Of a stretch of DNA of 56,129 nt, positions 15,046-45,223 are shown piece by piece; position 1 is the stretch's first letter, and each line of letters opens with the position of its first letter. Source of the stretch: Oscillibacter sp. (GTDB lineage Bacteria; Bacillota; Clostridia; Oscillospirales; Oscillospiraceae); assembly GCA_014799915.1 (NCBI GenBank), contig JAAVHD010000015.1, positions 14,367 to 70,495 of the forward strand, given 5' to 3'. The position numbers were made by a program, and so were the translations under genes. The notes under the pieces were generated by a model. That model was not told the DNA's origin. It worked only from the letters and a program-made list of their open reading frames with translations, and did not search any database.

Positions 15046-15074
15046 TTGGCAAACCAGCGCGGCTGTGGTATACT
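15046..15074 (+). promoter_or_regulatory. SigA-type promoter pointing at ygeY
   Basis: TTGGCA-17 nt-TATACT with a TGg extension. It implies an about 300-nt leader that contains repeat copy 1. Confidence 0.45.
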
Positions 15075-15105: not shown

Positions 15106-15358
15106 GAATCAAGGGTCTACGGGAACTCCCGGGCGCTGTTTGCCGCAGGGCGGCAAATGCGCTTGAAAGCCGCGCGGTTTGGGATTGTGCAATGGAGAAG
15201 ATTTTTTGGGGCGCGGCTTTCAGGGGATTCCGCACTCTGCGGAGTGCGGCCAGGGACGCTGTCCTAGTGGGCCGCCGCAGGCGGCCCGACAGCTGGGGCG
15301 GCCATTGGCCGCCTAACGCCTGGACTCTGCCACCTTTGAAAAGGTGGACGAAACTTTT
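15106..15358 (+). repeat. Multi-hairpin intergenic repeat, copy 1 (about 255 nt)
   Basis: Aligns end to end with 25137-25390 (same orientation) and with the reverse complement of 44911-45166. It is a chain of at least 7 GC-rich hairpins. Confidence 0.9.
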
Positions 15359-15377
15359 AATATAAGGAGGGACTCCT

Positions 15378-16559
15378 GTGATGCTGACGCAGGAAAGAAA
15401 AGAAGAGATGCTGTCGCTGGCAAAAGCCCTTGTCTCCCGGCAGAGCTATTCCGGCCAGGAGCAGGACGCGGCCAGCGAACTGAAGCAGTACCTGTCCGCC
15501 CACGGTTTTGACCGCGTAGAGACAGACCGGTACGGCAATGTCATGGGGCAGATCAAGGGCGGCAGGCCCGGTAAGAGGCTCCTGTTCGACGGACATCTGG
15601 ACACCGTCCCAGTGGCGAACCCCGCCGCCTGGACCCACGCCCCCTTCGCGCCGGAGGAGTCGGACGGGAAGCTCTATGGCCGGGGGACCAGCGACATGAA
15701 GGGCGCAGTGGCCGCCTTTACCGCCGCCGCAGGATTTTTCGCGGAGGACCGGGACTTTGCCGGGGAGATCTGGGTGGCCGGGGTGGTCCATGAGGAGTGC
15801 TTCGAGGGCGTGGCCGCCCGGAGCGTCAGCGAGATCGTCAAACCGGACTATGTGGTCATCGGCGAGGCGTCGCAGTGCAACGTCAAGGTGGGCCAGCGGG
15901 GGAGAGCGGAGATCGTGGTAGAGACCTTCGGCAAACCGGCCCACTCCGCCAATCCGGAGAAGGGCGTCAACGCGGTGTACGGCATGTGCAAAGTTGTGGA
16001 GGCGCTTCGGCATCTGGAGGTCCCGGAGCATCCGGTGCTGGGAAAGGGCATCCTGGAGCTGACGGATATCCAGTCGGCCCCCTATCCCGGGGCCTCCGTG
16101 GTGCCCTTCTACTGCCGGGCTACCTATGACCGCCGCCTGCTGGTGGGGGAGACCAGGGAGAGCGTTCTGGAGCCTATCCGGGCCGTTCTGGAATCCCTGA
16201 CAGCGGAGGGCGTTGTCCTTCGGGCTAATGCCTCTTTTGCCGAGGGGGATGCCCTCTGCTACACCGGCGAGACGATCCACGGGGAGCGTTTTTTCCCCGG
16301 CTGGCTGTATGGGGAGGAGGAACCCTTTGTCCAGGCCGTCCTGTCGGAGCTGCGGAATATCGGTCAGGAGCCTGAGGTGACACAGTACAGCTTCTGCACC
16401 AACGGCAGCCACTACGCCGGAGAGGCCGGGATCCCCACCATCGGCTTTGGTCCCTCCCGGGAGTCTCTGGCCCATACGGACGACGAGTACGTAGAGATCG
16501 CACAGCTGGAAAAAGCCTGCGAGGGCTATTATGCCATTATGAAGGCGCTGCTGCAATGA
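15378..16559 (+). CDS. ygeY: YgeY-family M20 peptidase/deacylase (selenium-metabolism-linked hydrolase family)
   Basis: aaggaggg RBS with a GTG-ATG start. Motifs GRGTSDMKG, VHEEC, GQRGR, HSANPEKGVNA and FCTNGSHYAGEAGIPTIGFGPS match the E. coli YgeY pattern. Confidence 0.75.
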   Translation: MMLTQERKEEMLSLAKALVSRQSYSGQEQDAASELKQYLSAHGFDRVETDRYGNVMGQIKGGRPGKRLLFDGHLDTVPVANPAAWTHAPFAPEESDGKLYGRGTSDMKGAVAAFTAAAGFFAEDRDFAGEIWVAGVVHEECFEGVAARSVSEIVKPDYVVIGEASQCNVKVGQRGRAEIVVETFGKPAHSANPEKGVNAVYGMCKVVEALRHLEVPEHPVLGKGILELTDIQSAPYPGASVVPFYCRATYDRRLLVGETRESVLEPIRAVLESLTAEGVVLRANASFAEGDALCYTGETIHGERFFPGWLYGEEEPFVQAVLSELRNIGQEPEVTQYSFCTNGSHYAGEAGIPTIGFGPSRESLAHTDDEYVEIAQLEKACEGYYAIMKALLQ

Positions 16560-23331: not shown

Positions 23332-23964
23332 TTATCCTTTCTCGGCGAGTTCTTCCACCCGGCGGCAGAGCTCCACGATCTGTTCATGCTTGAATTTATA
23401 GCTGACCTTGTTGGCGATGAGTCGGGCGGAGATGGGCACGATGGTGGTTTTCGGCTCCAGATCGTTCTCCAGCAGTGTCTTTCCCGTCTCCACGATGTCC
23501 ACGATCACATCGCTGAGCCCCAGAATGGGGGCGATCTCGATAGAGCCGTTCAGATGGATGATGTCAATATCCCGGCTCATGGAGGCGTAGTACCCGCTGG
23601 CGATGCGGGGGAACTTGGTGGCTACCCGCAATACCCGGTCCGTCCGGTCCCGGAAATCCTTCTTCCCGGCCACGCACATCCGGCATTTGCCCAGCCCCAG
23701 GTCCGCCAGCTCGTAGACGTCCGGGGCGTACTCCAATAAAATATCCTTCCCGGCCACGCCGATGTCCGCCGCGCCCCGCTCCACGTAGATGGCCACGTCC
23801 GATGGCTTCACCCAGAAGTACCGGACCCCGGCCTCGGGGTTCTCGAAAATCAGCTTCCGGTTCTCCTCCTCGATGGAGGGGCATGGGTATCCGGCGGCCT
23901 TGAACCGGGCGTAGACCTTCTCGCCCAGCCGCCCCTTGGGCAGCGCCACACTTATCATATCCAT
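23332..23964 (-). CDS. hisG: ATP phosphoribosyltransferase, short form
   Basis: 210 aa (short HisG, needs HisZ). Motifs VALPKGRL, DIGVAGKD and ETGKTL. Confidence 0.9.
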   Translation of the reverse strand: MDMISVALPKGRLGEKVYARFKAAGYPCPSIEEENRKLIFENPEAGVRYFWVKPSDVAIYVERGAADIGVAGKDILLEYAPDVYELADLGLGKCRMCVAGKKDFRDRTDRVLRVATKFPRIASGYYASMSRDIDIIHLNGSIEIAPILGLSDVIVDIVETGKTLLENDLEPKTTIVPISARLIANKVSYKFKHEQIVELCRRVEELAEKG

Positions 23965-25067
23965 CAGTCCCGGCCCCCTTCCTCAAACCGGACTATCTCC
24001 CGGCAACGCAGTCCCTGGGGAATTTCCCGCTCCATGCGGACGGACTTTCCTTGAGCGATGAGAGACGCGGCCCTGGCCGCCACACCGGCGGGGTCCGCCT
24101 CCGGTCCGTAGAGCAGCAGCGTGTCCACATCGTACTCGCTGCCCTCGTCCAGCCGTTCCAGCTGATCGAGATACACCGCAAAGCCGATGGCCTGCCCGGT
24201 CTTGCCCATGCGGCGCAGCAGATTGTCGTACCGTCCCCCCGCCAGCACGCCGCTGGCCAGTCCCGGCAGATAGCCCCGGAAGATGATGCCGTTGTAGTAA
24301 CGCATGTCGTTGGCAATAGAGAAGTCCAGCCGCAGGCCGTCCAGCAGCCCCAGGCGCTCCATGATCCGGCACAGCCCTTCCAGCTCAGCCAGGGCCGATT
24401 TTGCCCGTCCGCCCACAGCCAATTCCTCCAGCTGTGGCAGTACCTGAGCGGGAGGTCCATACAGCTGTGCCAGACGGCACAGCCGGTCCGCCAGCTCCCG
24501 CTCCACGCCCGCCTGGGCGCACAGCCGGTCCAGGGCAGGCGCGTTCTTACGGCTCAGCTCCATGAGGAGCTGTTCCTTCACGCTCTCCTCCCGGACCTGC
24601 TCCAGCAGCCCGGATACCAGTCCCATATGCCCCAGGTCCAGCAGATACTCCCCGCCGCCCAGCAGCCGCAGACTCTCCGCTGCCAGTGCCAGCACCTCGC
24701 CCATGGCCGCCAGATCCAGCTCGCCGATGCACTCCAGCCCGGTCTGCATGATCTCCCGGAAGCCCAGTCCGGCGGAGGTGGTGCGGTAGACGTTCTCGTG
24801 GTAGTACACCTTATCCAGCCCGCCCGCCGGAGGCTGGGCGTTCTTGACGATGGAGAGGGTGACGTCCGGCTTGAGCGCCATCAGCCGCCCGTCGGTATCG
24901 GTAAAGGTCAGAATATTTTCACTGACCAGAAAACTCTTGTTTCTTACATATAAGTCATAAGGCTCGAACTTACTCATGCGGTAGGGCTGGTAGCCGTGGC
25001 GGTGGTACAGCTCCCTCAGCCGCAGCCCGCCCCGCTCGTCCGAGCGCCAGATCGGGGATTGCTCCAT
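23964..25067 (-). CDS. hisZ: ATP phosphoribosyltransferase regulatory subunit (HisRS paralogue)
   Basis: Class II aaRS-like motifs (YRMSKFEPYDLY, LKPDVTLSI, YYHENVYR). I prefer ATG 25067, preceded by aggaggg, over the listed TTG at 25115. 1-nt overlap with hisG. Confidence 0.85.
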   Translation of the reverse strand: MEQSPIWRSDERGGLRLRELYHRHGYQPYRMSKFEPYDLYVRNKSFLVSENILTFTDTDGRLMALKPDVTLSIVKNAQPPAGGLDKVYYHENVYRTTSAGLGFREIMQTGLECIGELDLAAMGEVLALAAESLRLLGGGEYLLDLGHMGLVSGLLEQVREESVKEQLLMELSRKNAPALDRLCAQAGVERELADRLCRLAQLYGPPAQVLPQLEELAVGGRAKSALAELEGLCRIMERLGLLDGLRLDFSIANDMRYYNGIIFRGYLPGLASGVLAGGRYDNLLRRMGKTGQAIGFAVYLDQLERLDEGSEYDVDTLLLYGPEADPAGVAARAASLIAQGKSVRMEREIPQGLRCREIVRFEEGGRD

Positions 25068-25136
25068 TGTGACCCTCCTGAAATCAGCCATAAGCGAAAC
25101 GTAGTTTCGCGACAATAAGTTCTTTTTTGATAGTAC

Positions 25137-25390
25137 GAATCAAGGGTTGACGGAAACTCCCGGGCGCTGTTTGCCGCATAGGCGGCAAATGCGCTTGAAA
25201 GCCGCGCAGTTTGGGATTGTGCTATGGAGAAGATTTTTTTGGGCGCGGCTTTTGGGGGATTCCGCACTCTGCGGAGTGCGGCCAGGGGCTCTGCCCTAGT
25301 GGGCCGCCGCGGGCGGCCCGACAGCTGGGGCGGCCAAAGGCCGCCTAACGCCTGGACTCCGCCACCTTTGAAAAGGTGGACGAAACTTTT
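25137..25390 (+). repeat. Multi-hairpin intergenic repeat, copy 2
   Basis: By eye about nine-tenths identical to copy 1. It lies between the yerC-like gene and hisZ, antisense to both. Confidence 0.9.
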
Positions 25391-25426
25391 ATGATACGGT
25401 TTGTCAAAACCTTGAGTCGTGTCAGC

Positions 25427-25714
25427 CTATTTCCCCTCAATCCGGTCCAACACCGTCTGATACCCGCCCGCACCGTAGGCGCAGCAGCGGTTGACGCGGC
25501 TGATAGTGGCGGTGCTGGCCCCGGTGTGCTGGGCGATGCGGCTGTATACCGTCTTTTCTCTGAGCAGCTTTGCTACCAGGATTCGCTGGGAACAGTCCTG
25601 GATCTCCTTACCGGTCATCAGATCCTCCAGAAAGGCCCGGCACTCCGCCTCCGTCTGAAGCGACAGGATCGCCTTGACCAGCAGCTCCGCGCCCTCTCCA
25701 TGAAATACCTCCAC
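25427..25714 (-). CDS. yerC: YerC/YecD-family TrpR-like DNA-binding protein (candidate histidine-operon regulator)
   Basis: 95 aa. AILSLQTEAECRAFLEDLMTGKEIQDCSQRILVAKLL....YSRIAQHTGASTATISRV matches the YerC/YecD family. GTG start after aagggggat. Confidence 0.75.
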   Translation of the reverse strand: MEVFHGEGAELLVKAILSLQTEAECRAFLEDLMTGKEIQDCSQRILVAKLLREKTVYSRIAQHTGASTATISRVNRCCAYGAGGYQTVLDRIEGK

Positions 25715-32609: not shown

Positions 32610-35600
32610 ATGCTGCGGATCTGGATAGGCCGGGCCAATACGGGAAAATCCAAACGGGTGCTGGAGGAGATCAAGGAGAAACGCGCCCCGGTGCTGCTGC
32701 TGGTGCCGGAGCACGCCTCCCACGGCTCCGAGATGGACCTGTGCCAGGAGTGCGGGCCCACGGCCTCCCGGTACGCGGAGGTGCTGAGCCTGCGGCAGCT
32801 GGCCACCCGGGTGCTGGAGCGCACCGGGGCGCTGGCGGACGGGGCCCTGGACGCCGGCGGAAAACTGCTGCTGATGCAGCTGGCGCTGCGGGAGGCGTCG
32901 CCGCAGCTGACGGTGTACGCCCGGCCCTCCCGGAGGGCCCCCTTTTTGCAGGAGCTGGTGACGCTGTGCGACGAGCTGATCGCCTGCCAGGTGAGGCCGG
33001 AGGACTTGGGTGAGGCCGCCCCGCTGCTGGAGGGCATGAGCGGGGAGAAGGCCCGGGATATCGCCCTGATCTATGCCGCCTACCTTGCCCACCTCAACCA
33101 GGACGGCACGGACCGTCGGGACCGGATGGAGAAGCTGCTGGAGCGCCTGGAGGAATCCAAATACGCCGTGGGGAAGGACATATATCTGGACGGCTTCACC
33201 TACTTCACCGCCCAGGAGATGCAGCTGCTGGAAATTTTGCTGCGGACGGCGAAGTCGGTGACGGTGACCCTGCTGGGCGACGGCAGCGAGCTGGAGGTGT
33301 TCCAGCAGAGCGTCCGGGCTCGGAGCCGCCTGGAGCGGCTGGCCGCCGCGTGCGGCGTGCCCTGCCGGACGGAGATCCTGCCCGCCGGGCCGCCGGAGAA
33401 TGCCCTGGAGCACCTGGCGGAGCGCTTTTTCGGCCCCATGGAGCCCTGGGAAGGGGACTGCGCCGGTGTGGAGCTGGTGAAGGCGGAGAGCATGTTCACG
33501 GAGACGGAGTACGTGGCCGCAAAGATCATGGAGCTGGTGCGGACGGGGGGTTACCGCTTTCGGGAGATCGCCGTGGCGGCCCGGAACCTAGACGAGTATG
33601 CCGCCACCATCGAAAACGTCTTTGAGCGCTTCGGCATCCCCGTCTACCTCAGCCGCCGCAGCGACGTATTGGAAAAACCGGTGCTGAGTCTGCTGGCGGG
33701 GGCCCTGGACGCGGTGACGGGAGGCTATGAGTACGAGGATATGTTCCGCTGGCTGAAAACCGGGCTGGCGGGGATCACCGATGCGGAGTGCGATAAGCTG
33801 GAGAATTACGTCATCACCTGGGACGTCCACGGTTCCATGTGGGTCCGGGAGGAGGACTGGACCGCCAACCCCGACGGCTGGCGGGAGGATTTTACCCCCG
33901 CCCAGGCGGAGGCGCTGGCGGAGATCAATGACATCCGCCGCCGGGTGGGCGGCCCCCTGGGCCGTCTGGCGCAGGGATTGAAGGATCACGAGGGCGCGTC
34001 GGACAAGCTGCGCGTGCTGTGGGGCTTCCTGGAGGAGCTGGGCCTGGCCCGGCAGCTGGAGGAGCGCACCGCCCGGCTGGAGGAACTGGGCGAGCTCCAG
34101 CGGGCCCGGGAGTATGCCCAGCTGTGGGAGCTGCTGTGCGATGTGATGGACCAGTTCGCCGGTATGCTGGAGGATATGCCCCTGGACGGGGAGGAGTTCG
34201 CCCGGCTTTTGAAGCTGGTGCTGACTCAGTACGACGTGGGCACCATTCCCGTATCCCTGGACCAGGTCCAGGCCAGCCAGATCACCCGCAACGACCGCCA
34301 CCGGATCAAGGTGCTGTTCCTCATGGGGGCCAATGACCACGTCCTGCCCGCCGTCCAGACCAGTACCGGCCTTTTCACCCGGGAGGACCGGGAGCAGCTG
34401 CTGGAAAACGGCATCGAGCTGGCCCCCAGCGGGATGGACGTGTTCCACATCGAGCTGCAAAACCTCTACGCCGCCCTGGCCCAGCCCACGGACCGGCTCT
34501 TCGTCTCCTGGCCCGCGTCGGATCTGGCGGGTTCGCCCCTGCGGCCCTCCTTCGTTGTGGGACGGGCCAGGACGCTGCTACCAGGGGTGAAGGAGACGGA
34601 TGACGGCGGCGTTTCCTTCCGCCGCCTCACGTCGCCCCTGCCCGCCCTGGAGCTGGCGGGAGGGGAGCAGGGCGGAGCCCTGTGGAGCTATTTTGCGGAA
34701 AATGAGCGGCACAGCGCCGCCCTTTCCGCCATGGAGCGGGCCGCCGGGATGAACCGGGGACGATTGTCCCCCTCGGCGGTGGAGACCCTGTACGGCTCCA
34801 GCTGCCGCATGTCCGCCAGCCGGATCGACAAGATCAACTCCTGTCACTTCGCCTACTTCATGCAGTACGGCCTCCGGGCAAAAGAGCGGACTCCTGCGGG
34901 CTTTGACGCATCCCAGGTGGGGACCTTCCTCCACTTCGTCCTGGAGAAAGTCACCCACGCCGTCATGGACCGGGGCGGCTTTGCCCAGGTGGACGAACAG
35001 GAGCTACGCCGCCTCACGGACCAGGCGGTGCAGATGTATATGGACGAGGCCCTGCCCGGCTTTGACAAGCGGGAGGAGCGGTTCAAATACTTATTCCGCC
35101 GTCTGCGGAAGACGGTGCATACCATCGTATCCAACGTGGCCGACGAGCTGGCCCACTCCGACTTTGTGCCTGTGGCCTTCGAGCTGGGGTTCGGCGAGGG
35201 GGAGGAGATGCCCCCCGTCTCCATCCGGATAGAGGACGCTTCCCTCACCGTGGCGGGCCGTGTGGACCGGGTGGACGGCTGGCTGCGGGACGGCAGGCTG
35301 TACCTGCGGGTGGTAGACTACAAATCCGGCAAAAAGGCTTTTGACCTCAGCGACGTCCGCCACGGCCTGAACATCCAGATGCTGCTCTACCTCTTTGCTC
35401 TGAGGCGGGAGGGAAAGAAGGTGTTTGGCCGGGAGATCGTCCCGGCGGGGGTGCTGTACCTGCCCGCCCGGGATGTGCTGGTCAGCAAGCCCCGGAGCAT
35501 CCGCGAGGAGGATATCCGCGCCGCGCTGGATAAGGAGCTGCGCCGCAGCGGGTTGGTCCTCTCCCAGCCGGAGGTGCTCCAGGCCATGGAGCACAGCGCT

Positions 35601-41595: not shown

Positions 41596-43449
41596 ATGCG
41601 GCCATATCAGCAGAAATATATCGACAATGTCCGGGAAATCGCCGCGCTCACCGAGCGTCTGAAGCCGGGGGAGCTGGTCTTTGAGGAGTATGCAGCTCTG
41701 CTCCGGGAGAGGGAGCGGCAGGCGGCGGAAAAGGTGAAGGAAAACCTGGAGCTGCTGCGCAGGAATCTGCTGCCCACGGTGGACCACCTGTTTGAGACAA
41801 CGCCGGAGGACCTAAAGGATCTGGAGGACTTTGCCTCCCAGCTGCGTGGAAACACGGAGACCCGGGACGAGGGCCTGTTCCGCCTGATCCATCAGGCACT
41901 GTTGAGCCTGGCCCGGCAGCGGGGGGACCGAAACGCCATGATCCGGGAGCTGTACTGGCTGGGGATGGGCTATTTTGACCTGAGCAGCAAGCTGGTGGGA
42001 CTGGGGCTGCAGCATGTGGCGAAGTACGTCAGCCAGATGCGCCTGTGTTTCACGGAGGCGGCGGCCTATCTGAAATATTTTGATGAGATCGACGATACGG
42101 AGACCCGGGGATATATCCTGCGTTCCCGGGCCAATATGTCCCTGGGACTTTTCAGATCCCCCGGCGAGAAGATTAGTCAGGTGCGGGAGACGCTGCGGAT
42201 CATGCAGGACGAGTCCTATCAGAGCAAGGAGCCGGATCTGCCGTGGGACCGCTATATCTACACGGTCCATCAGCAGATGGCGACCAGCATCTCCTACCGC
42301 AAGGAGAAGGTGATGACGCCGGAGGATATGGCCAGCATTATGGATTCGGCCTATATCGTCTATCAGCGGCGGATACAGGAGACGAGTGAAAAGCATGAAA
42401 CGCCGCCCCTGCGCTGGGCGTTTCCTTATTATGCCATTGAGTATTACTGCGGGATCTACGATATGGACCATCTGCTGGGGCGGGTGGAGATGCTGCTGGA
42501 CGCGGCGGACCCCGCCGACCGCTCGCCGGACGGGATGTATGGAATTTTGTCCCTGCCAGCATTTTACTGCCAGTATCTGCTCCAGTATCCGGAACGAATC
42601 CCGGGCAGGGAGGCGTATATCGACTCCCTTTTCCGGCGGGCCATGAACTATGCGGATTCCTTTGCTTCGTCGAAGGAGGATCGTATCCCCCTTTACATCC
42701 GGCATCTGTCCTACATGTATCTGGAAACCAGCAGCGGGACCCCCTTCGGGGAGTTTCTCCAATGGATGATGCTCCGGTTCATGCCGGAGGTATATTTGCA
42801 CTCCTGGATGGTGGGCACGGCGGCCAAGGCGCTGTGCGAGCTGATCCTGGAGGAGGAACCGGAGTTTTTCGACGATATCCCTGAGATCTGCGCACTGACG
42901 GACCCGCAAAAGAAGCGGCGGCAGGTGCTGGACGACGCCATGCAGAGCGGCCTGCTCCACGACATCGGGAAGGTCAGCGTGCTGGAGCTGTCCACCCGCA
43001 CTGTGCGGCAATGGCAGGAGGAGGAGTACGAGGTCACCTGCCTGCATACGGCGGCGGGACATCTCCTCCTGAGTGAGCGGGCCTCCACGGAGCGCTTCGC
43101 CCCAGTGGCGCTGGGGCACCACGCCTGGTATGACGGCTCCGCCTACGGATATCCCGCGACCTATAAGCGGCTGGAGTGTCCCAGCCGTCAGATGGTGGAT
43201 GTTGTCGGCCTGATAGACTGGATCGAGGCTGTGACCAACTCCGACTGCTCCCACACGGGAATTGTGATGACCTTTGACGAGGCGGTGGAGGAGGCCATTG
43301 CCCTGGAGGGGCGGCAGTTCTCACCCCTGCTGACCGCCCGTCTGCGGGATAAGCAGGTAACAGAGAAGATCCGTCAGGCCTTTAAGGCCGGCCGCCGGGA
43401 GGCATACCGTCAGATGTACGAGCAGGAGCGGGAAAGGGATGATCCCTGA
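41596..43449 (+). CDS. HD-GYP-domain protein with a large uncharacterised N-terminal domain
   Basis: C-terminal HD-GYP signature: LHSWMVGTAAKAL, LLHDIGKVSV, GHHAWYDGSAYGYP. The first 400 or so aa have no family I recognise. Confidence 0.75.
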   Translation: MRPYQQKYIDNVREIAALTERLKPGELVFEEYAALLRERERQAAEKVKENLELLRRNLLPTVDHLFETTPEDLKDLEDFASQLRGNTETRDEGLFRLIHQALLSLARQRGDRNAMIRELYWLGMGYFDLSSKLVGLGLQHVAKYVSQMRLCFTEAAAYLKYFDEIDDTETRGYILRSRANMSLGLFRSPGEKISQVRETLRIMQDESYQSKEPDLPWDRYIYTVHQQMATSISYRKEKVMTPEDMASIMDSAYIVYQRRIQETSEKHETPPLRWAFPYYAIEYYCGIYDMDHLLGRVEMLLDAADPADRSPDGMYGILSLPAFYCQYLLQYPERIPGREAYIDSLFRRAMNYADSFASSKEDRIPLYIRHLSYMYLETSSGTPFGEFLQWMMLRFMPEVYLHSWMVGTAAKALCELILEEEPEFFDDIPEICALTDPQKKRRQVLDDAMQSGLLHDIGKVSVLELSTRTVRQWQEEEYEVTCLHTAAGHLLLSERASTERFAPVALGHHAWYDGSAYGYPATYKRLECPSRQMVDVVGLIDWIEAVTNSDCSHTGIVMTFDEAVEEAIALEGRQFSPLLTARLRDKQVTEKIRQAFKAGRREAYRQMYEQERERDDP

Positions 43450-43562: not shown

Positions 43563-44909
43563 ATGGTTAGATTGTGGAATGGAGAAGATGTCCAGTGGAA
43601 GATCAAGCTGTGCCTGGGCGGTAAGGAGGGCTCACTGGAGCCGGGCGAGGAGGCCAGGGAGCTGGCAGCAGGTCTGCCGGAGAAGCCGAAGGCCGAGGAT
43701 CTGCGCCGGTGCGCCGCCAGGGCGGCCCTTGAGATCCGGACACTGGGCGGTACATCTGCGCTGCTGGATGTGTCGCCCGCCGTGGAGGCGCTGGGCGGCG
43801 AGGGGCTGGCAGCCCTGGTCCAGGGCTTTGAGCTGGCCCTCTACCGGCAGGAGAACTGGAAGCAGGAGAAGAAGGAGGAGAAGCCTCTCGACCTCTACCT
43901 CACCGGCGCGGGCGATGGGGACGCGGTCCTGGCGGAGACCACCGTGCTGGATCGCTGGGTATGCTTTGCCAGGGATCTGGTGAACCGCCCCTCCAACAAG
44001 CTGACGCCTGTGATGCTGGCCCAGGCGGTGACAGAGGCAGCAAAAGATCTGCCCGTAGAGGTCCAGGTGCTGGACGAGAACGAGACCCGCGCACTGGGGA
44101 TGGAGGCGTTCCATGCCGTAGGCGACAGCTCCGCCAACCCGCCCAGGCTCATTGTCCTGCGCTATCGCGGCGGCAGGGAGGAGGCACCCATCGCCCTGGT
44201 GGGCAAGGGCGTGTGCTTTGACTCCGGCGGATACAGCATCAAGCGGAGTATGCGGGGCATGAAGGGCGACATGGCCGGCGGCGCGTCGGTGTGTGCGGCG
44301 ATCCTGGCCCTGGCGGAGAATCGGGTGCCGGTGAACGTGACGGCGGTGATCCCCGCTGTGGAAAACCGCATTTCTCCGGCCAGCTTCCTGCCCGACGACG
44401 TGATCGGCTCCATGTCTGGCAAGACCATTGAGATCGGCAGTACCGACGCCGAGGGCCGTCTGATCCTGGCTGACGCCATTACCTACGCCATTGAGAAGGA
44501 AAACGCCTGCAAAGTGGTGGATATTGCCACGCTGACCGGAGCGATCGCCCGGATGTTGGGCGGCGTTGCCGCTGGCGTGATGGCCAATGACGATGATTTC
44601 TACGCCGCGCTTCAATCTGCCGCCGGGCATACCGGGGAGAAGTTCTGGAGGATGCCGGATTATCCGGAGTATAAGAAGCTGATCGAGAGCCCGGTGGCGG
44701 ATCTGTACAACTCCAGCGAGGGCTGCGGGGCTATCGCGGCGGGCATGTTCCTGCGGGCCTTCGCCGGGGATACGCCCTGGGTTCATCTGGATATCGCCGG
44801 TACAGGTCACTCCAGCGGCCAGGGTCAGCCCTATCAGCCCAAGGGGGCTACAGGTATGGGGGTCACGACGCTTTACCAGATGTGCAAGGATATGGCAGGG
44901 AAAGAATAA
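43563..44909 (+). CDS. pepA: Leucyl aminopeptidase (M17)
   Basis: VGKGVCFDSGGYSIK, MKGDMAGGA, STDAEGRLILADA and GMGV are canonical M17 motifs. Confidence 0.88.
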   Translation: MVRLWNGEDVQWKIKLCLGGKEGSLEPGEEARELAAGLPEKPKAEDLRRCAARAALEIRTLGGTSALLDVSPAVEALGGEGLAALVQGFELALYRQENWKQEKKEEKPLDLYLTGAGDGDAVLAETTVLDRWVCFARDLVNRPSNKLTPVMLAQAVTEAAKDLPVEVQVLDENETRALGMEAFHAVGDSSANPPRLIVLRYRGGREEAPIALVGKGVCFDSGGYSIKRSMRGMKGDMAGGASVCAAILALAENRVPVNVTAVIPAVENRISPASFLPDDVIGSMSGKTIEIGSTDAEGRLILADAITYAIEKENACKVVDIATLTGAIARMLGGVAAGVMANDDDFYAALQSAAGHTGEKFWRMPDYPEYKKLIESPVADLYNSSEGCGAIAAGMFLRAFAGDTPWVHLDIAGTGHSSGQGQPYQPKGATGMGVTTLYQMCKDMAGKE

Positions 44910-44910
44910 T

Positions 44911-45166
44911 AAAAGTTTCGTCCACCTTTTCAAAGGTGGCGGAGTCCAGACGTTAGGCGGCCTTTGGCCGCCCCAGCTGTCGGTCCGCCTACGGCGGACC
45001 ACATGGGCAGCGCCTCTGGTCGCGCCCCGCAGGGCGCGAAATTCCCCAAAAGCCGCGCTCAAAAAAATCTTTTCTCTAGCACAATCCCGAACCACGCGCG
45101 GCTTTTAAGCGCATTTGCCGCTTACGCGGCAAACAGCGCCCGGGAGTTTCTGTCAAATCCTGATTC
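44911..45166 (-). repeat. Multi-hairpin intergenic repeat, copy 3 (inverted, most divergent)
   Basis: Its reverse complement aligns over the full length with copies 1 and 2. Several stems differ by paired (compensatory) substitutions. Sits between the convergent pepA and rpoC. Confidence 0.88.
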
Positions 45167-45184
45167 GCCTATTTTCATAGTAAT

Positions 45185-45223
45185 AAAAAAGTCGGAAGCC
45201 ATTTATTGGCTTCCGACTTTTTT
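45185..45223. terminator. Bidirectional terminator downstream of rpoC
   Basis: aaaaaa-gtcggaagcc-atttatt-ggcttccgac-tttttt. Confidence 0.8.

Follow-up and report, generated by a model that had tools for sequence, protein, structure and literature searches.

The BOX elements of Streptococcus pneumoniae are built as boxA-boxB(n)-boxC, lie between genes in either orientation and are often co-transcribed with their neighbours; we know of no transposase for them. REP/BIME and REPIN elements, whose REPs measure 20–40 nt, are mobilised by RAYT (Y1/HUH) transposases. To our knowledge, RAYT systems have been described mainly in Proteobacteria, and systems of the REP/RAYT type hardly at all in Gram-positive anaerobes. 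The Correia elements of Neisseria, ERIC and bcr1 of the Bacillus cereus group are small structured MITE-like repeats common to hosts and phages; promoters that face outward arise at the ends of Correia elements, and T-rich TTTAT repeats border bcr1. PATEs and the stand-alone omega-RNAs of the IS200/IS605 family have no terminal inverted repeats and carry direct subterminal hairpins (PMC10055086, PMC10691335).

A repeat family that seems closest in kind to BOX, REP/REPIN and PATE elements, and that apparently was neither catalogued nor described before, is represented by three copies in a 56,129-nt stretch of DNA from Oscillibacter sp. (the whole of which is called the window below). An initial interpretation made from the letters alone (the sequence-only reading) had pointed to three full-length copies, all of which were recovered by a repeat finder and aligned with MAFFT:

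15106..15358, forward strand (+): copy 1, long form
25137..25390, forward strand (+): copy 2, long form, the copy on which this analysis centres
44911..45166, reverse strand (−): copy 3, long form, with a hairpin H3 of a different variant type

Overall identity among the three is ~83–94%. Copies 1 and 2 are ~93–94% identical (ungapped) and the inverted copy 3 is ~83–90% identical to either, close to the earlier estimate by eye of nine-tenths for the first pair and less for the third. The repeat finder paired 15106-15367 with 25137-25399 and both with the inverted 44906-45171. In the alignment the mean column identity is 90% and similarity falls sharply at both ends, the flanks of the three copies being mutually unrelated. 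Conservation extends ~7 nt to the left of GAATCA (ATAGTAC, ATTAGGT and ATAGGC) and ~5 nt (TAnnAT) to the right, past GAAACTTTT; thus the conserved bases of copy 1 reach ~15099 and ~15363, and the left junction of copy 2 reads CTTTTTTG|ATAGTAC-GAATCA. An exact 22-base pattern matched only the three copy sites in the window, with 0 matches expected from shuffled sequence. We think it about 60% probable that the copies belong to a non-autonomous, non-coding, recombining family of interspersed hairpin-module repeats, distributed patchily in Oscillospiraceae, other gut Clostridia and phages.

Pfam searches of the neighbouring genes bear out that the three contexts differ. Copy 1 lies between an SSF symporter gene (−) and an M20 peptidase gene (+, 15378-16559) and makes up most of the ~300-nt leader of the latter, with a strong promoter-like site TTGGCA-17-TATACT upstream (15046-15074). 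Copy 2 occupies the spacer between a TrpR/YerC-like gene (25427-25714, −) and a hisZ-like gene (23964-25067, −); it is antisense to both, and the yerC stop codon is 36 nt away. Copy 3 is found between convergent pepA (M17) and rpoC; the pepA stop codon (44907-44909) directly adjoins its 3′ end, and the copy is preceded by the rpoC terminator, a hairpin and T-run at ~45183-45222; the copies of two other contigs (L087 and L204) likewise follow terminators. Only copy 1 is a sense leader, and family-wide the 3′ neighbour gene is mostly convergent, with a stop codon often ~20–35 nt off. These observations speak, as the sequence-only reading had argued, against one orientation-specific cis-regulatory role, and for the same reasons we rejected a cis-regulatory leader or riboswitch. 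Its statement that no reading frame is conserved also held, because indels of 1–2 nt shift the frames and the stops differ between copies. A protein-coding gene was accordingly discarded: the frames are broken, and a six-frame chimeric query returned no protein at E≤0.01.

The three copies fall within ~46 kb of non-prophage DNA. The window itself corresponds, in reverse complement, to the first 56 kb of an ENA metagenome contig, and the organism is an uncultured member of the Oscillospiraceae. The best RpoC matches to the window protein are only 69–78% identical, and the nearest named PepA and HisZ relatives, with 73–76% identity, are labelled Oscillibacter sp. Several other features of the window deserve mention. 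Positions 1-~9500 and the ~10 kb upstream of them on the source contig (L238) make up a prophage or phage-like region. It contains genes for capsid, sheath, tape-measure, baseplate, holin and amidase and is free of the repeat. Beside copy 2, the his operon leader (25068-25136) contains a conserved hairpin GCGAAAC-GTA-GTTTCGC. Past the 3′ end of copy 2 (25391-25426) comes a small hairpin GGTTT-GTCA-AAACC, a modified form of which persists in the orthologous copies. Located directly upstream of hisZ, the TrpR/YerC-like gene may control the his operon. A weak 50-nt direct repeat (62–74% identity) occurs three times, at 32794-32843, 34039-34088 and 41903-41952, apparently in large ORFs, and is probably a coding-sequence motif.

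The element folds far better than shuffled sequences on both strands (z = −5.3 for + and −5.8 for −). All the hairpins first listed by eye are present with the loops and stem differences given for them, in the sequence as well as in the consensus fold. In copy 2 the modules are arranged as follows:

25170..25189, forward strand (+): hairpin H1, TTTGCCGC-ATAG-GCGGCAAA, with both-side changes at 4 of its 8 pairs
25198..25252, forward strand (+): long stem H2, AAAGCCGCGC ... GCGCGGCTTT, around a variable internal region
25255..25360, forward strand (+): three-way junction with the closing stem GGGG/CTCC
25262-25281, forward strand (+): hairpin H3, with a UGCG loop
25282-25295 with 25351-25355, forward strand (+): hairpin H4
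25296..25350, forward strand (+): optional 55-nt module, which interrupts the 3′ arm of H4 with two GC hairpins (25301-25319 and 25329-25345)
25361..25390, forward strand (+): family-wide core: H5, with a variable base and an invariant CCTTTGAAAAGG top, followed by the tail ACGAAACTTTT

In relatives H1 can be much enlarged (by 80 nt in L114b and by ~60 nt in L231), and in H2 they show AAA/TTT changed to GGG/CCC. All three window copies have the 55-nt module, and so does L114a, in which its stems differ from those of the window but keep their pairing; it is missing from the orthologous copies of the sister genomes and from most family members. Every member recovered has the 3′ core, consisting of the three-way junction, H5 with its invariant CCTTTGAAAAGG top and the tail GAC-N-AAACTTTT. 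Strong conservation is also seen in the unpaired joiners and loops (GGAACTCCC, CGCTG, AATGCGCTT, the UGCG loop and ACTCC).

Family members were recruited through the core motif, with the search pattern CCTTTG-N-AAAGG-NN-G-N-C-N-AAACTTTT, and the universality of the core is for this reason partly circular; second copies, which are free of this bias, also end in AAACTTT(T/G). The pattern led to 20 viral loci in IMG/VR and at least 120 metagenome loci, mostly from the human gut. Many of the matches lie within ~50 nt of contig ends, as expected of a repeat that breaks assemblies. In a blastn search of phage records the last 40 nt matched unannotated gut 'Bacteriophage sp.' scaffolds, one of which (L087) carries a diverged ~330-nt homologue of the same layout; the same search against plasmids gave only noise. 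The family is modular. Full-length relatives (L114a, L114b, L136, L185 and L103) keep the helix order, namely GAATCA..GGAACTCCC, H1, the long stem H2, GGGG, H3, H4, ACYCC, H5 and the tail, with hairpins that expand or drop out, and other members have this 3′ core joined to other 5′ modules. Two copies are found in the 3.5-kb contig L114 as compared with three in the 56-kb window. The unpaired tail, loops and joiners are deeply conserved in contexts ranging from ~40% to ~70% GC.

A low-GC branch has a different architecture. Its unit in L150 (10925-11377) measures ~450 bp, is bounded by 28-nt inverted repeats (..TAAATTATGGTTTAGC / GCTAAACCATAATTT..) and contains two inverted cores that face each other, TTGAAA-16-TATAAT pointing outward from each; low-GC gut contigs of this kind are numerous. 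The 15-nt inverted-repeat end of this branch was unspecific as a probe for viral contigs, yielding at least 120 single matches apparently due to chance. An exact pattern taken from the optional module (GACAGCTGGGG...CTAACGNCTGGA) had 0 matches in genome, viral or metagenome sequences, which reflects the rarity of that module. In the IMG/VR contigs L096, L098, L100, L101, L104, L105 and L108 a tyrosine integrase gene is located ~470 nt from a truncated low-GC copy whose homology to the repeat starts abruptly at CTATCGTCAG, which suggests that a phage family integrates into or beside the element. GC-rich members such as L136, L185, L170 and L107 often have a short GC hairpin, for example GCGCTTCGCGC, 2–8 nt past the tail; its complement contains GCGAAGC, which we take to be an exceptionally stable DNA mini-hairpin.

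How does the family compare with the systems introduced above? It resembles BOX elements, as we know them, in its conserved terminal modules, the variable number of internal hairpin modules, the strong folding and the lack of coding capacity. However, there is no sequence relationship, the host clade is another, and the present elements have a three-way junction and a ~26-nt core that is maintained across very different GC contents and occurs in phage contigs too. Likeness to REP and REPIN elements, again as generally known, lies in the hairpin with an adjacent conserved single-stranded motif, the location at gene 3′ ends and in convergent regions, and the concerted evolution, and the inverted core doublets of the low-GC branch are REPIN-like. 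On the other hand, a REP is a 20–40 nt imperfect palindrome next to a conserved tetranucleotide, whereas the unit here spans 80–280 nt with 3–7 helices, only H5 and its tail being REP-like in size; furthermore no RAYT/Y1 gene was found in the fetched loci. The 3′ TTGAAA-16-TAnnAT site and the T-rich junctions are reminiscent of Correia elements and bcr1, but terminal inverted repeats and defined target duplications belong to Correia, ERIC and bcr1, and neither is demonstrable in the window subfamily. PATEs share a structured scaffold that reaches the element boundary and the occurrence in many copies away from any linked gene (PMC10055086, PMC10691335); they differ in that here our searches detected neither an effector nor a Y1 transposase, the target motif varies and there is no similarity to Rfam families.

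Consistent with the view that the element is not assignable to a named family, Rfam 15 gave 0 matches in the whole window at the gathering score. For copy 2 at E<10 it returned only noise (E>5), and for four relatives from phage records nothing relevant. A search of the open-access literature on the motif and on described repeats in these taxa yielded nothing specific. A group I or II intron was dismissed by reasoning on the unfitting size and ends and the missing Rfam match. An intrinsic terminator was likewise set aside, as no T-run adjoins any stem. A CRISPR repeat was also considered and rejected; H3 together with the GAAAC tail resembles, we presume, type I-C CRISPR repeats.

The sequence-only reading had taken the paired differences in the stems as the signature of selection on secondary structure, and had proposed a covariation test. 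Among 31 diverse core sequences, 94.5% of the H4/H5 cells are paired compared with ≤61% when the partners are slid, and 41 cells show a double change where shuffles give 12. For the full element (12 members, 61-pair model) the corresponding values are 97% paired versus ≤47% slid, with both-side changes at 15 pairs versus 7.1 in shuffles. In neither alignment did any of 500 shuffles reach the observed value, so that covariation stands well beyond chance in both the cores and the full-length members. From these pairing statistics it follows that the hairpins are real and maintained, and to this extent the earlier claim stood. The nature of the constraint is another matter. Stem changes are nearly all from one Watson–Crick pair to another: of the 403 cells of the core alignment a single one is G-T, and one-sided changes are few in the full alignment. 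Strand asymmetry is not clear except for an invariant G-U in the putative junction stem. As a consequence an RNA fold, hairpins of single-stranded DNA and palindrome correction are not separable on these data.

The second qualification of that claim comes from the orthologous loci. In a sister genome (sample ERZ23500220; PepA 95% and HisZ 96% identical) all three orthologous sites are occupied, with matching flanks, by copies of the short form, and a third strain (L004) has a short-form copy at the site of copy 2. Modules recur among the copies of one genome. In the sister genome, loci 1 and 2 have in common an H5 of the type CGGCC/GTAA/GGCCG and an H1 of the type TTTACCGC/GCGGTAAA. CCACC/GAAA/GGTGG and the 55-nt module are common to all three window copies. 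The paralogues c1 and c2 are 94% identical as against 87% for the orthologues c1 and o1, whose flanking coding sequences are 94–100% identical. That hairpin variants follow the genome and not the locus indicates that the copies within a genome are homogenised by gene conversion (concerted evolution). The 'compensatory' differences among the window copies and their orthologues are then largely swaps of pre-existing hairpin variants rather than independent compensatory events.

The orthologous sites are also polymorphic for the presence of the element, which is absent from two of the three sites checked in relatives with 80–87% identical flanking proteins: from the yerC-hisZ spacer, which measures 90 nt or 2 nt, where HisZ identity is 85–87%, and from the pepA-rpoC region where PepA identity is 80%. 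An nhmmer search of the fetched loci of these relatives (~180 kb, partly redundant) found no copy anywhere, and none of 80 related loci fetched via rpoC (closest RpoC 69–78%) has the element. At the single comparable empty site the flank differs beyond a simple insertion and has an H5-like hairpin of its own. In the relatives with 80% PepA identity (L232-L234, 11350-11895), a 181-aa AAA_18/kinase-like gene fills the pepA-rpoC gap where the window has copy 3. One empty yerC-hisZ spacer (L241, 9911-10000) has one H5-like hairpin, GCACCTTTT..AAAAGGTGC, which may be a remnant, a seed or a coincidence.

Unlike DDE-derived MITEs, the window subfamily is devoid of terminal inverted repeats. Judged by eye, the 5′ end ATAGTACGAATCAAGG agrees with the reverse-complemented 3′ end ATAAAAGTTTCGTCCA at 4 of the first 12 bases; such repeats, of 28 nt, are confined to the low-GC branch. 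A clean target-site duplication could not be reconstructed for this subfamily with its one comparable empty site. There is T-rich direct similarity at the two junctions, CTTTTTTGAT / CTTTTATGAT in copy 2 and TTTTAT in L103, of which TTTT belongs to the conserved tail. The left-flank ends of ~8 independent copies read TTTTTTG, CATTT, AATTT, ATTTT, GAAA, GAAA, ATTC and GGGT. At both ends a hairpin is followed in direct orientation by (A/C)G(G)RAAC; the 3′ ACGAAAC is universal, and the 5′ hairpin with CGGGAAC is clear in L185 and weak in the window copies. These direct-orientation end hairpins and T-rich junctions might liken the element to the ends of IS200/IS605 elements, to PATEs and to stand-alone omega-RNAs. 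At the 3′ end each window copy has an outward sigma-70-like site matching 9–10 of 12 consensus positions:

25368..25395, forward strand (+): outward site of copy 2, TTGAAA-16-TATGAT
15336-15363, forward strand (+): equivalent site of copy 1, with TAATAT
44933-44906, reverse strand (−): equivalent site of copy 3, with TATTAT

The −10 box at this site is TATAAT in the low-GC branch and is lacking in many other GC-rich members. No promoter consistently preceding the element was found, nor any intrinsic terminator at its 3′ end.

The neighbourhood of ~150 copies was inspected for genes that could move them. Clustering of 1,096 ORFs and Pfam searches of the upstream ORFs uncovered no recurrent transposase; only one family of phage integrases came up, in one group of near-identical viral contigs. 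No tnpB, iscB or Y1 tnpA gene is located near any of the copies, and a tblastn search of 2.8 Mb of fetched loci with an IS200 TnpA query revealed no IS200-like Y1 transposase.

The sequence-only reading had favoured a REP/MITE-like mobile or recombinogenic element or an autonomous structured RNA. The former fits the multiple copies, both orientations, presence or absence among relatives and exchange of modules; the latter gained no positive support, because no consistent promoter or terminator accompanies the element. An RNA function nevertheless deserves to be weighed in two forms. It could be that the element is a stand-alone guide-RNA scaffold of omega-RNA type, transcribed in the sense direction from a PATE-like derivative of IS200/IS605, in which the DNA past ...GAAACTTTT serves as guide for a TnpB-type nuclease encoded elsewhere and a Y1 transposase moves the element through its terminal hairpins. 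PATEs encoding omega-RNAs and mobilised stand-alone omega-RNAs are on record (PMC10055086; PMC10691335). The ~200–255 nt multi-hairpin scaffold with its conserved unpaired joiners, its sharp 3′ end abutting variable sequence and its lack of terminal inverted repeats would suit this role, as would the direct-orientation end motifs (in L185 the 5′ CCGGT-CAAAA-ACCGG-CGGGAAC matches the 3′ H5-ACGAAAC) and the T-rich pentamers (TTTAT, TTGAT) just upstream of the left end in several copies. The conserved G-U of the GGGG/CUCC junction stem, which is an A-C mismatch on the other strand, points in the same direction. However, the gene searches described above turned up no tnpB, iscB or Y1 tnpA near ~150 copies and no IS200-like Y1 in the 2.8 Mb, Rfam yielded nothing beyond noise at E<10, the left-flank motif is not uniform, both orientations occur within one replichore, a consistent sense-strand promoter is missing and variable stem positions have almost no G-U. 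We therefore consider this guide-RNA arrangement rather unlikely. It is similarly doubtful that the elements are an omega-RNA-like mobilised scaffold or some other trans-acting structured RNA of an uncatalogued class in gut Oscillospirales and their phages, and there is only a small chance that an effector or HUH enzyme binds the 3′ junction, hairpin and tail while the DNA beyond ...GAAACTTTT gives specificity.

In its other form the RNA hypothesis would make the copies paralogous genes for an independent trans-acting structured small RNA and not mobile DNA at all. The conserved multi-helix fold with covariation, loops of UNCG and GNRA type (UGCG in H3; GUAA and UCCG in H1 of some copies), a −10-like hexamer that several copies have 2 nt ahead of GAATCA (TATAAT in L114b; GATAAT in L004 and B_o2) and the phage integrase that neighbours a truncated copy in some viral contigs, a situation also known from tRNA and sRNA genes, would all be compatible with this, but neither an upstream −35 box or consistent promoter nor a 3′ intrinsic terminator was found, whole helices are dispensable or expandable between orthologous copies, close relatives have no element, and the positions look opportunistic (within a leader, antisense within an operon, abutting a stop codon). 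A small-RNA gene family thus appears distinctly improbable. No greater weight is given to a purely mechanistic origin of the stems, in which template switching at quasi-palindromes and gene conversion copy changes from arm to arm, making covariation uninformative on function. The almost exclusive Watson–Crick to Watson–Crick double changes (1 G-T in 403 core cells) and the few one-sided changes in the full alignment are what it predicts, and since the same variant hairpins occur at different loci of one genome, conversion does operate. It leaves unexplained the deep conservation of the unpaired tail, loops and joiners from ~40% to ~70% GC and the conserved helix order, and as a full account it is quite unlikely; it is best seen as a contributor to the preferred reading. 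Several points count against the hairpin-module repeat family that we prefer. Besides the partly circular recruitment of members, the missing terminal inverted repeats and clean target-site duplication of the window subfamily and the lack of an IS200-like Y1 gene in the 2.8 Mb, the conserved joiners and loops and the multi-helix junction exceed what is typical of REPs or MITEs and would also suit a functional RNA. In addition, the surroundings of the copies yielded no transposase or other mobilising gene.

For this interspersed repeat family we infer the following mode of mobilisation and role of the core. The 3′ core would be the recognition site of a trans-acting factor that propagates the element and acts on folded single-stranded nucleic acid; the other hairpins would be optional cargo that can be gained, lost or swapped. 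Copies would settle between genes, chiefly at gene 3′ ends and frequently right behind T-runs, and then persist, and those within one genome would be homogenised by gene conversion. Any effects on neighbouring genes would be by-products: copy 1 may supply a structured 5′ leader of ~250 nt to the M20 peptidase gene, copies 2 and 3 may add hairpins behind stop codons, and a putative promoter points outward from each copy.

Although the Oscillospiraceae and related Clostridia of the gut are abundant, most have not been cultured, and the annotation of their DNA outside genes is poor. A repeat of the present type matters in these bacteria because it breaks metagenome assemblies and exchanges modules between copies, and because it places long hairpin arrays, and possibly outward promoters, in leaders, operon spacers and 3′ ends. 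Shared copies could also link phages to their hosts. Within a known kind of element, the family stands out by a core that is constant across GC contents, by its complex fold and by having no mobilising partner found near the copies. Conservation of the core across very different base compositions points to a specific trans-acting partner, and the identity of this partner would show how such repeats spread in Gram-positive anaerobes.
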